A stretch of DNA of 63,479 nucleotides, the filler included, from Reclinomonas americana ATCC 50394 (taxonomy: Eukaryota), in assembly GCA_048213135.1 (NCBI GenBank). It is 8 parts of 5 records of this genome, joined end to end, with 100 filler letters (N's around TTAATTAATTAA, not from the genome) between each part and the next. Parts side by side here need not be neighbours in the genome. Positions count along the whole stretch, not along the records: positions 57,395 to 61,377 come from PS015099.1; 7 more parts are not named here. One strand, 5' to 3'. The notes beneath the pieces were generated by a model that had not been told where the DNA came from, made no database searches, and saw only the letters and a program-made list of their open reading frames with translations. Position numbers and translations under genes: made by a program. The stretch's first letter is position 1. Each line of letters opens with the position of its first letter. Shown in pieces: positions 57,914-60,881 of the stretch.

Positions 57914-60881
57914 TTAGCCAGCGCAGTCCTCTTGGTATGAGCCGTCTTGCAGCATGCGCTCGACCTTGGCTCGTCCGCTGTCCATGTTGACGAGCGATGG
58001 ATTGGCGGAATCGCGCTCTGCCAGCAGCCATGCCACTTGCTCGCGGATGCTGGGAGCGAATTGCAGGAGGCCACTGTGGAGGGAGGTTGAGAAGGAGAAG
58101 AGAGTTGTACAGACTGTTTCTTTTCTTGCTTTCTTTCTTTCCCTCCCTCTCTCATCTCTTCTTCCCTCCCCTCCCCTTCCCCTTCCCCTTCCCTTCCTCC
58201 CTTCCCCCGAAACTCACCCACACACATACACATGCGCGCCACCACGCTCAAGCATGTCCGTCAGCGGCTCACGCCAGGTGGTCATCAGGTCGCTGACGAA
58301 CTCGGGCTTTTGTGGCGGGAAATCCGAGTACGCCACCAGCATCTTGGTGAGCGCACCGCATTCGAGTGCACGCGCCGTTAGTTCGTGGTGCGTCAGCAAC
58401 TGTGGCGCCCGCACGCCCCACAGCAGCCACGCCGGTCCCAGCTCCACGCCCTATGTACGCCAGTGTGATGAGCCCGACAATCACACACCCTCACTCCCTC
58501 TAGACTCCCGCCTCTCCGTACCTGCTCTCGCATCAGGATGCGTTCCTGCAAAAAGCCGGCGTGCGGGGCAATGCCGGCTCCGGCCGCCACCTGGATAATC
58601 GGGCGCAGCGGATCTGTCGGCAAGCGGAAGGTGGAGGGTCGCACAAAGACCCAGCTGCGATCGCCGGCACGCAGGCGGTGCAAGTAGTCGGAGCAGAAAC
58701 CGTGGAAACCGACTTGCGGATTGGACAGGCGCTTCGAGGTGAGCGACACAATGTTGGGGTTGACGCGCGACGACGAGGAGATGGAGTAGAAGCGCGGCTG
58801 GATGACGGCCAGGGTGTCGAGGAAGAGCGTCCACGGAGTGAGTGCGGCCAACTGCGGGAACTGGCGCAGCACGGAGAGGGAGGACTGGTGCGGAGCACGC
58901 ACGAGCGTCTGATACTCATCCTGCGGGAGGCACATAACGGTAAGCATGTGGAGAAACACCAAGGCACACANNNNNNNNNNNNNNNNNNNNTCAACACGCA
59001 ACGCCCGTCATCAGCTCCAATTGCTGACGCTCGGCACACAGGCCGTGATCCGCGGCCACCGCAGTCAGAAGGCGCAGCAGCTGACGGGAGCACGGACCGT
59101 GCAAGTCGAACACGTGCGTCAGTGCATACGACAGTGTGACGCCGGCGTCGTGATGCAGCACGGCCTTGATACGGGCGGCGGGATCTGCAGACTGATGTAA
59201 GAGACACGGAGCTCCGTGTGTGTGCACACACCAAACAAGGTGACGCAACTGCCGGGCACCTCACGCACACGCAGTGCCGCCAATGGCGACGCCTTGAGCA
59301 GTTGCAAGCATTCCTCGACCTCTACCGGCGAGTTGGTGCCAAACACGCCCAGATGGTCACCGGTCTCGTATCGGCAGCGCCCCGCCGTGTGCCGCACCAC
59401 GTCGAATTCGGTGTGCGTGATCACCTGGCCGGAGCCGGGCGGAAGCAGGTTGAAGGAGCGCGTGACGGCGGCCAGACCCGGGTTGCGCGCATCGAGACCG
59501 GAGCCGTCTGAGAGTGGGAAGCGAGCGGCAATGTCGTTCAGCGGCGGACTGCCGCACGTCTTGACGGCCTCGATGGAGCAGTGCGTGCTGACATGGGGAG
59601 AGTGAGTTGAGAGAGTGAGTGGTGGGTGAGGGACTAATGTGCTCACCGGAACTCATCGAGTGCCGATGTCTTCTTGCCGGCCGTCGTTGCAGAGGAGTCG
59701 GCGGGCGCAGCAGCGACATCAGCGACGCCACCACTCACGGTGGCCTTGTAGGCCTTCCAGAATTGTTCCTCCCACGCCATAAAGTCGCCTTCGAGACTGC
59801 ACGGATGAATGTAGGTAAGCGACGCTGCGTGTCACTCGCTTTGTGGTGTCCACTCGCTCGTCGCTCTGTGGTGGTGTCCCCTCACTTGTCGCTCTGTGGT
59901 GGTGTCCACTCGCTGCGCGCTCTGTGGCGGTGTCCACTCGCTGGTCGCTCTGTGGCGGTGTCCACTCGCTGGTCGCTCTGTGGCGGTGTCCACTCGCTGG
60001 TCGCTCTGTGGCGGTGCCTCCCACCTGTTTGCCCACTCGCTGCCCTCAGTGACCGTTTCCTCATTGTTTGCTCTCTGGTGTCATCCTGCGACAGATCCAC
60101 TCCGCTCCTCTCCCGTACAGTATCTCCCTTGTACGTAACTCGCTGCCATCATCGCCCTCGCCACGCGGCAGCATGGGCGTCGCCCCCAGCTCCGTCAATC
60201 GCCGCTCCAACATCTTGCCCACCATCTGGTACCGCTCCGGGAACGTCATCTTGTTGCCGAGACCAAAGATCTGAACATGCAAAAGTCAGTTGTCTGGTAG
60301 CCACACACTGCCTCTCAAACAAAACTCACCGCGTAACGCAGACTCGACAGCGACCCAGGTGTCAACCGCGGCGAGTTGAGCAACCAGTTGAAGAACGGCT
60401 TGGCATTGTCGGTGGGCTCGCCGGCGCTTCAGCACCAATTAAAAAACGATCGAAATGCACATGTACTACACGACCAATCAATCACACACTCACCCATAAC
60501 ACGCGACGACAAACACACAATCGGGCGGTGTTGCAGAGCCCAGCAGCTCGCTCTCCCACTTGAAGTCCTCCAGATCAACCACATTGGCCTTGGCCGGCGC
60601 CGGCACTCGCGTGCGCGCTCCGTCACCCAAAACATCAGCAAAACCCTGCGCATGATCACACGAGTGAGACGCGATAAAGGCGTGTGTGTGTGTCAGCGCG
60701 TACGCAACATGAGCATTGCCAGTCTGCGATCCAAACAGAATGCGTAGTGGCCGCACTGTGGGGAGAGAGAGAGAGAGTGAGCATGACATGATGCGCACGT
60801 GCTCACGAGTGACTGACCAGCAGCTGCTGTGGAGGAGAAGCATCGCGCGCCACTCGCAACTGACGCCAATGCACGCAGCAT
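57914..60881 (-). CDS. Cytochrome P450 reductase-like diflavin (FMN/FAD) reductase with presequence-like N-terminus
   Basis: ILFGSQTGNA, CYG/AGEPTDNA, YAIFGLGN, GEGDDGSDLEGDF, YETGDHLGV, IQPRFYSISSS, GFCSDYL, FVRPSTFRLP, AAGAGIAP..GFLQER, AHVYVCG, C-terminus YQEDCAG*. Confidence 0.92.
59845..60018. repeat. 28-bp minisatellite (ggtgtccactcgctggtcgctctgtggc), about 6 copies, inside reductase intron 59797-60139
   Basis: Units start at 59845, 59873, 59901, 59929, 59957 and 59985, with no spacers. Confidence 0.92.

Follow-up and report, generated by a model that had tools for sequence, protein, structure and literature searches.

The minus-strand gene at positions 57914..60881 of a 63,479-nucleotide stretch of DNA from Reclinomonas americana ATCC 50394 (assembly GCA_048213135.1; the whole stretch, eight parts of the genome joined end to end, is called the window here) encodes a diflavin reductase of the cytochrome P450 reductase (CPR) type, predicted from its sequence to bind flavin mononucleotide (FMN) and flavin adenine dinucleotide (FAD) and to move electrons from NAD(P)H. 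Judging from its N-terminus, the protein is soluble and probably located in mitochondria. Its gene stands head to head with the gene of a hybrid cluster protein (HCP), an iron-sulfur enzyme for the reduction of nitric oxide or hydroxylamine, which makes the reductase a good candidate for the HCP electron donor. We hold it fairly probable that this soluble, mitochondrial enzyme is the dedicated donor of the mitochondrial HCP encoded beside it. The first-pass annotation of the window had left the acceptor of the reductase unknown; HCP is now offered as a candidate for that place. By sequence comparison the reductase belongs to a widespread, unnamed pan-protist offshoot of CPR and is not a one-off.

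All ten matches to the HCP family PF03063 in the 108-Mb genome lie on two scaffolds, C63 (86054-88012) and C91 (78475-80142). They are on the plus strand, opposite to the reductase, and just upstream of it on both scaffolds. The HCP body comprises 8 exons and 505 codons with 45% identity to enterobacterial HCP. These exons are intact, differ between the two copies by 9 silent versus 3 replacement changes, and carry motifs for what we take to be the hybrid-cluster ligands. Gaps of 79 and ~6,600 N separate the HCP body from the reductase on the two scaffolds, and the flanks of the gap correspond between the C63 and C91 copies on either side. The reductase gene sits on the contig at 57395-61377 of the window, and the join at 61378-61477 concealed its true partner gene, HCP. 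The intergenic side of the locus is organized as follows.

60882..61280: 399-nt intergenic stretch between the divergent ATGs, a candidate shared promoter
61281..61304, plus strand: candidate HCP exon 1, MLSLIRRQ followed by a GTCAGT donor; the HCP body itself is outside the window
61378..61477: artificial contig join (N44, 12-nt spacer, N44)

The C63 counterpart of the candidate exon reads MFSLIRRQ followed by GTCTGT, and 475 of 487 aligned bases of 60879-61377 are identical between the two copies. We infer that 61281-61304 is HCP exon 1, encoding the start of a presequence, and that it is joined to the HCP body. The WD40 gene at 61510-62700, next in the window, is past the artificial join, matches none of the four scaffold flanks and was rejected as a neighbour. 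Elsewhere in the genome a NirK-like spliced gene is found in two copies, G000:C3615 3188-4222 (L202) and C1691 310-1347 (L203), with exon-wise scores below the family cut-off; it is a possible source of nitric oxide (NO) upstream of HCP.

The pair recurs in other organisms. Scanning metagenomes with an alignment of 12 family sequences gave 76 diflavin loci (best 80 of 212 confirmed), 11 of which score best against the family. Seven family loci extend 1 kb or more upstream, and a divergent HCP gene is present in 6 of them; counted as distinct loci these are 4 of 5, three of the six linked loci being one sequence. The remaining 65 diflavin loci, of which 45 reach 1 kb or more upstream, show no HCP. 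The four linked loci are not independent events because all are from one subgroup. Their HCPs have the short cubane motif C-x2-C-x8-C-x5-C and lack the class II insertion in all four cases, and three start with a presequence-like segment, the fourth having an intron there. A diatom pair, L048, is nearly free of introns. A bacterial origin of the pair was rejected, as a diflavin gene was found within 4 kb of prokaryotic hcp in none of 80 loci (best 80 of 534).

The HCP of Acanthamoeba castellanii, ACANB09472, is reported to be a confirmed mitochondrial protein induced by hypoxia, and the consecutive locus tag, ACANB09473, belongs to a 650-residue protein of the CPR/NDOR1/MTRR/NOS orthogroup (PMC13632651). 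Both proteins are in AcMitoCarta, a mitochondrial inventory based on experiment, where ACANB09473 is one of two among the nine members of its orthogroup; in the main text, as far as it was available, it appears in a plasmid list only (PMC13632651). It has about the same length as the R. americana reductase and, by orthogroup, length and tag order, is its presumed orthologue. The HCP of Cyanophora is footnoted as fused to 'sulfite reductase' (PMC8003979 Table 4). The supplement sequence g5263.t1 of the same paper, inspected by eye, contains a complete diflavin reductase and an HCP in one chain. This fusion is thus composed of the same two modules and its 2'-phosphate loop has lost the Arg too (SFSHDQ). 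It is unlike the reductase in being a single chain, in having no evident presequence and in keeping a terminal aromatic residue (EEAYS).

The frame of the reductase is open over 645 codons, from the ATG at 60881 to the TAA at 57914, in an exon model built from genomic sequence in which the first and last exons are predicted. The gene and its features are listed below.

57914..60881, minus strand: CPR-like diflavin (FMN and FAD) reductase gene, 11 GT-AG exons, 645 amino acids
60881-60818, 60755-60709, 60645-60494, 60426-60330, 60270-60140, 59796-59647, minus strand: exons 1-6
59587-59265, 59184-59003, 58920-58522, 58450-58218, 58073-57914, minus strand: exons 7-11
60818..60881, minus strand: exon 1, presequence-like N-terminus by composition, Kyte-Doolittle maximum 0.92
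58292..58333, minus strand: putative 2'-phosphate loop AYSDFPPQKPEFVS, Asp codon at 58324-58322
57914..57937, minus strand: C-terminus YQEDCAG and stop codon, Ala codon at 57922-57920
59845..60016: 28-bp tandem repeat, 6.1 copies, inside intron 5

Exon 1 (60881-60818) encodes MLRALASVASGARCFSSTAAA plus one base, that is 21 codons plus one base, and joins VRPLRILFGSQTGNAH at 60755, the start of the flavodoxin strand, by the phase 1 splice already described in the first-pass annotation. Pfam searches of single exons matched FAD_binding_1, with Flavodoxin_1 below cut-off (43-aa exon). The protein aligns with CPRs over its full length, as a single chain with a flavodoxin domain first and the FAD- and NAD(P)-binding domains after it. 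The gene is present twice in the genome, on C91, identical to the window sequence, and on G000:C63. In the C63 copy 41 codons are changed silently and 10 with amino-acid replacement; it retains all 11 exons without indel and every splice site, while most introns carry indels. Since exons and splice sites are kept and changes are mostly silent, the model is under selection and not a chance frame. Intron 5 measures 343 nt in the window copy versus 602 nt in the C63 copy. Intron 8 contains a 20-N gap; a hidden exon is unnecessary there because the protein aligns across it. Unusual donors, GTTGCG or GTTACG, are used by introns 2, 5 and 8 of the reductase (3 of 10) and by one of the seven HCP introns (L040, intron after 2076), where GTGAG is the usual donor; they may mislead gene finders.

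The start Met is found 24 residues before the flavodoxin strand. This leader has 3 Arg, no acidic residue and no transmembrane helix, and its R-C-F/S-S segment resembles what we take to be the R-3 cleavage motif. The absence of a membrane anchor for the endoplasmic reticulum (ER), claimed from the first inspection, is borne out by the low hydropathy of the N-terminus and by the upstream DNA: none of 9 frames of at least 17 aa in 496 called bases is hydrophobic (best Kyte-Doolittle 17-mer 0.99). An in-frame stop 10 codons upstream of the Met leaves no room for a PFO or hydrogenase domain, ruling out a PNO or hydrogenase-diflavin fusion. Presequences were called by a simple composition rule. Under this rule family N-termini are presequence-like in 21 of 25 scorable cases and have a transmembrane anchor in none (0/25), and non-family N-termini are presequence-like in 4 of 143 and anchored in 120 of 143. 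The window also has, at 32700-33832 on the minus strand, a pyruvate dehydrogenase E1 alpha-like gene identified by eye, indicating a conventional mitochondrion.

The coenzyme site lacks the residues by which enzymes of this type are normally confined to NADPH. The 2'-phosphate loop reads AYSD..PEF, with the Arg to Asp change noticed at first pass. The alignment extends this change: Asp, Pro, Phe and Ser occupy the columns of CPR Arg597, Lys602, Tyr604 and Gln606, so that with Pro for Lys602 and Phe for Tyr604 the whole R/K/Y triad is lost and not Arg alone. This numbering, together with Asp632, is what we take to be that of rat CPR, the columns being set on a mollusc CPR. The YQEDCAG end retains the catalytic Asp and has Ala in place of the FAD-shielding Trp, again as first annotated. 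The catalytic Ser, Cys and Asp are all present, in motifs RFYSI, YVCG and YQED. We presume that R966 of P450 BM3 is equivalent to CPR R597, consistent with the alignment. On this basis the reductase is a natural counterpart of the BM3 double mutant R966D/W1046S, which together with CPR W676A/W677A changes the same two positions in the same direction. Those are laboratory mutants of NADPH enzymes, whereas the change in the reductase is natural and the loss is fixed across its clade. Published specificity ratios are 0.24 for W676A and 0.002 for W676H of human CPR, 1.16 for W677A of rat CPR, and 0.63, 0.37 and 0.62 for W1046A, R966D/W1046S and R966N/K972H/Y974F/W1046D of BM3 (PMC5817062 Table 1). 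Specificity moved about two to five orders of magnitude in the engineered variants (200- to 50,000-fold), ending near parity (PMC5817062). The reductase likely uses NADH, given the residues of its coenzyme site. The initial description "NADH-preferring" is plausible, as the NADPH-discriminating residues are lost, yet overstated, since the engineered equivalents end near parity; we give NADH preference over NADPH a somewhat better than even chance.

A search with the largest reductase exon gave 72 matches, among them P0017 of Lapot gusevi, whose start is presequence-like and whose terminal Trp is missing. P0017 seeded further searches, from which 227 of 341 sequences were retained (sequences shorter than 480 aa were dropped, as were most of the redundant CPRs from plants and animals). 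The phylogeny with CPR-type sequences called for at first pass places the reductase in a clade of its own (33 of 227 sequences, FastTree support 1.0). The clade contains proteins ending E-D-x-[AS]-D from Lapot, Mylnosiga, Willaertia and others; we take these three to belong to Rhizaria, choanoflagellates and Heterolobosea. Its members keep the catalytic Ser (33/33), Cys (33/33) and Asp (32/33). The terminal aromatic residue is absent from all 33, replaced by Ala (22), Ser (10) or Cys (1), and outside the clade Trp is found in 171 of 188. Arg597 is present in 1 of 33 members versus 182 of 188 other sequences, and the complete S-R..K-x-Y motif in none versus 174 of 188. In 30 of 33, Gly takes the place of Asp632 in the CGD loop. 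Since an acidic residue occupies the 597 column in 6 of 33 (Asp in 3, Glu in 3), what characterizes the clade is that the basic site is lost, rather than that Asp is gained. Transcript-derived clade sequences share the N- and C-terminal features of the reductase too.

Six presequence-bearing proteins ending D/E-x-F adjoin the clade in the tree as a sister group (P0216, P0198, P0245, P0288, P0276, P0267). They have His or Phe at Arg597 and Phe at Tyr604 and retain the terminal Phe; they may mark an intermediate stage or constitute a second reductase of mitochondria. A quick IQ-TREE analysis without bootstrap (C20, 49 rows) gives a Shimodaira-Hasegawa-like approximate likelihood-ratio (SH-aLRT) support of 99 for the clade (18 of 49) and 99 for the clade with the sister group. 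The trees and the approximately unbiased (AU) tests had no labelled NDOR1 or PNO among their rows. With 26 rows the AU test rejects grouping of the reductase with 8 ER CPRs (p=0.008), a constraint that also forces the CPRs together, and with BM3-, MTRR- and CysJ-like rows (p=0.013). The reductase scores 464 bits against a hidden Markov model of the clade from which it was removed, versus 399-410 against three random CPR sets. Its closest relative in the trees is 33% identical over the full length. A profile search added two family members among the 120 matches listed, and the ESM Atlas matches were generic diflavin and HCP clusters only. Among metagenomic sequences, the 1,839-residue MTRR-like P0194 has six tandem near-identical flavodoxin domains and P0294 has three.

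Searched for flavodoxin domains, the genome yields 10 matches, which come from four types of gene; the reductase is the fourth diflavin paralogue. The others include a CPR of canonical form: it has a hydrophobic helix at its N-terminus, carries AFSR..KVYVQ and ends RYLRDVW; with the AU result, this sustains the distinction from ER CPR made at first pass. Genes that we label NDOR1-like (C61, C89) and MTRR-like (C89) from motifs presumed diagnostic are also separate. The companion claim of distinctness from NDOR1, MTRR and PNO may hold, the trees being limited to the rows mentioned above. The reductase shares with ER CPR (POR; human 5fa6, 3qe2) the FMN-linker-FAD-NAD(P) anatomy and the catalytic Ser, Cys and Asp. 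It is unlike ER CPR in belonging to a separate clade, in having a presequence instead of the anchor, and in lacking S-R..K-x-Y and the terminal Trp: AYSD..PEF and DCAG replace S-R..K-x-Y and the terminal D-x-W. It also has AAGAG for GPGTG, CGG for CGD and a 1-2 residue insertion after FGLGN. The best PDB sequence match of the family member P0017 is human CPR (E 7e-94), which is also the best fold match (TM-score 0.80) of its AlphaFold model (mean confidence, pLDDT, 84.5; residues 1-24 unconfident). GiOR-1 of Giardia resembles the reductase in being a stand-alone diflavin reductase of a mitochondrion-derived organelle, a location predicted for the reductase. This mitosomal protein is Tah18-like, works ~30-fold better with NADPH, strongly preferring it, and has an acceptor described as unknown; the part of the paper available contains no link to HCP (PMC3044749).

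The best reading of these data is a route from NAD(P)H over FAD and FMN to HCP in mitochondria. The reductase would be imported into the mitochondrial matrix and would pass a hydride from NADH to its FAD, and probably from NADPH too, since the 2'-phosphate meets no binding residues and there is no aromatic residue that must first move aside. Electrons would move from FAD to FMN, and the FMN domain would swing out as in CPR and form a transient complex with HCP, handing electrons one at a time to the [4Fe-4S] cubane of the latter. At low oxygen the hybrid cluster may then spend them on the reduction of NO (to N2O) or of hydroxylamine (to ammonia). A bidirectional promoter would be common to both genes. 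Hcr, the partner of HCP in Escherichia coli, binds FAD and a [2Fe-2S] cluster and, like the reductase, is a flavoprotein encoded beside hcp, here with an assembly gap between the genes on each scaffold. The reductase is unlike Hcr in using FAD and FMN, with a flavodoxin instead of a ferredoxin domain; its gene and that of HCP are divergent whereas hcr and hcp form an operon, and the linked eukaryotic HCPs are without the class II insertion, unlike the HCP served by Hcr. It probably works like Hcr despite this different architecture. The donor of class I HCPs is described as unknown while class II HCP uses the NADH-oxidising Hcr; reduction of HCP driven by NADH has been proposed for Hcr, as is predicted here for the reductase, and NAD(P)H is considered a favourable HCP donor given a partner enzyme (PMC10210160). 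The role of algal HCP is described as unsolved (PMC7412212).

Several observations weigh against the donor role or parts of it. The linkage of HCP and reductase spans an N gap on both scaffolds here, and neither a pattern search nor a 50-aa query found the HCP exon(s) that would encode the cubane motif, in the first ~50 residues. They probably lie in the assembly gap, and the size of the 79-N gap is wrong because ~50 missing residues exceed 79 bases. The branch of the reductase is long (1.76) and the AU test fails to reject its grouping with the sister group (p=0.065). The Cyanophora reductase is not clearly of this clade, as its terminal Tyr is kept and SFSHDQ is sister-like. The metagenomic family locus L050, with 2.9 kb upstream, holds another gene and not HCP. 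In blue-native gels of Acanthamoeba the peaks differ, HCP in slices 13-15 and ACANB09473 in slices 8-13, with a peak ~9- to 30-fold below that of HCP, and a second diflavin protein, ACANB04425, is mitochondrial (PMC13632651). These differences in slice and height argue against a stable 1:1 complex of HCP and ACANB09473, and ACANB04425 perhaps resembles the sister group. The missing linkage at L050 and the main peaks that do not co-migrate in Acanthamoeba (PMC13632651) fit a reductase that is co-regulated with hcp and serves other acceptors, acting as a flavodoxin-like general donor to radical-SAM enzymes, cobalamin, Fe-S repair or NirK, with HCP reduced by ferredoxin. Ferredoxin was proposed as HCP donor in Chlamydomonas (PMC8003979 section 3.2.4). 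Shared regulation alone can, on general grounds, preserve divergent pairs. We find this explanation unlikely. The pair is kept over Discoba-, Amoebozoa- and probably diatom-level distances and, with the in-frame fusion, has the usual signature of direct redox partners. Hydrogenase was also rejected as another acceptor: no [FeFe]-hydrogenase was found in the genome, and the four matches of the PF02906 search are presumably one Nar1/IOP1-type gene in two copies.

The reductase could also be the HCP donor and yet prefer NADPH or be indifferent, its substitutions speeding hydride transfer or product release rather than switching the coenzyme. Of the engineered variants (Trp to Ala, Ser, Asp or His) 5 of 6 are below a ratio of 1 and arrive at parity without clear NADH preference (PMC5817062), the acidic residue at the Arg597 column is confined to the six family members mentioned above, and GiOR-1, though Tah18-like, favours NADPH (PMC3044749). 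Against this, Arg, Lys, Tyr, Trp and Asp632 are all missing from the family, a wider loss than in any engineered variant listed, and the bacterial partner Hcr uses NADH (PMC10210160); we consider an NADPH-preferring or indifferent donor distinctly unlikely. Finally, an ordinary ER-type or cytosolic CPR with a missed first or last exon, or a decaying duplicate, would be compatible with a presequence called from composition alone, with exons predicted from genomic DNA and with identity of at most 33% to any sequence in the trees. We judge it highly improbable: the 496 called bases upstream have no hydrophobic stretch, purifying selection acts between the two copies, the canonical anchored CPR (RYLRDVW) is encoded elsewhere in the genome, and the features of both termini are repeated across the clade, transcript-derived sequences included.

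Other features were noted along the window. Its parts are joined artificially at 4887-4986, 19156-19255, 31721-31820, 42950-43049, 52578-52677, 57295-57394 and 61378-61477; each join is made of N44, a 12-nt spacer with stops in all frames and N44, and genes across joins are not genomic neighbours. Three tandem paralogues on the minus strand at 53878-57300 share a KKP[PL]LAGK...ARxxVDT..EL motif, and the two tested are without Pfam match. Two near-identical tandem WD40-repeat genes occupy 61510-62700 and 63099-63479 on the plus strand. Inspection by eye further identified three cyclin-like genes (31765-32260, 42346-43005, 50100-50891), a HECT ligase-like gene (3400-4900), and CCT- and prefoldin-like genes (29110-31220). 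In the assembly a bacterial 16S rRNA gene is found at G000:C1 279109-280629 (L023), presumably Bacteroidota-like, and an intronless CysJ-like gene on C6766 (L012); the assembly therefore contains bacterial DNA. The search for small-subunit rRNA also gave a short divergent 18S end.

Both modules, diflavin reductase and HCP, are known protein families. We came upon no description of this clade, and no diflavin named as donor of eukaryotic HCP, in the literature searched, which excluded subscription papers. As a tentative extension, rather doubtful at present, eukaryotes would carry an old, hitherto undescribed mitochondrial module of a CPR-derived, naturally NADH-specific FAD/FMN reductase and a class I-type HCP. 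In Discoba, Amoebozoa and stramenopiles the two genes would be kept head to head and share a promoter; in other lineages they would be fused. The module would act as an NADH-driven NO reductase, detoxifying NO and making N2O in protist mitochondria under hypoxia, with mitochondrial NirK acting upstream. If true, the module supplies the missing donor of class I-type HCPs and gives the CPR family a member that is NADH-specific by nature. The clade is also a natural form of the coenzyme switch that engineers have only partly achieved in CPR and P450 BM3, and a truly NADH-specific, fast member would serve biocatalysis. A candidate for the HCP donor is now named in protists, where the function of mitochondrial HCP is described as open (PMC13632651, PMC7412212). 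If the module reduces NO with NADH, diatoms, amoebae and other common protists would have a further route to N2O, a eukaryotic route independent of P450nor and flavodiiron proteins.

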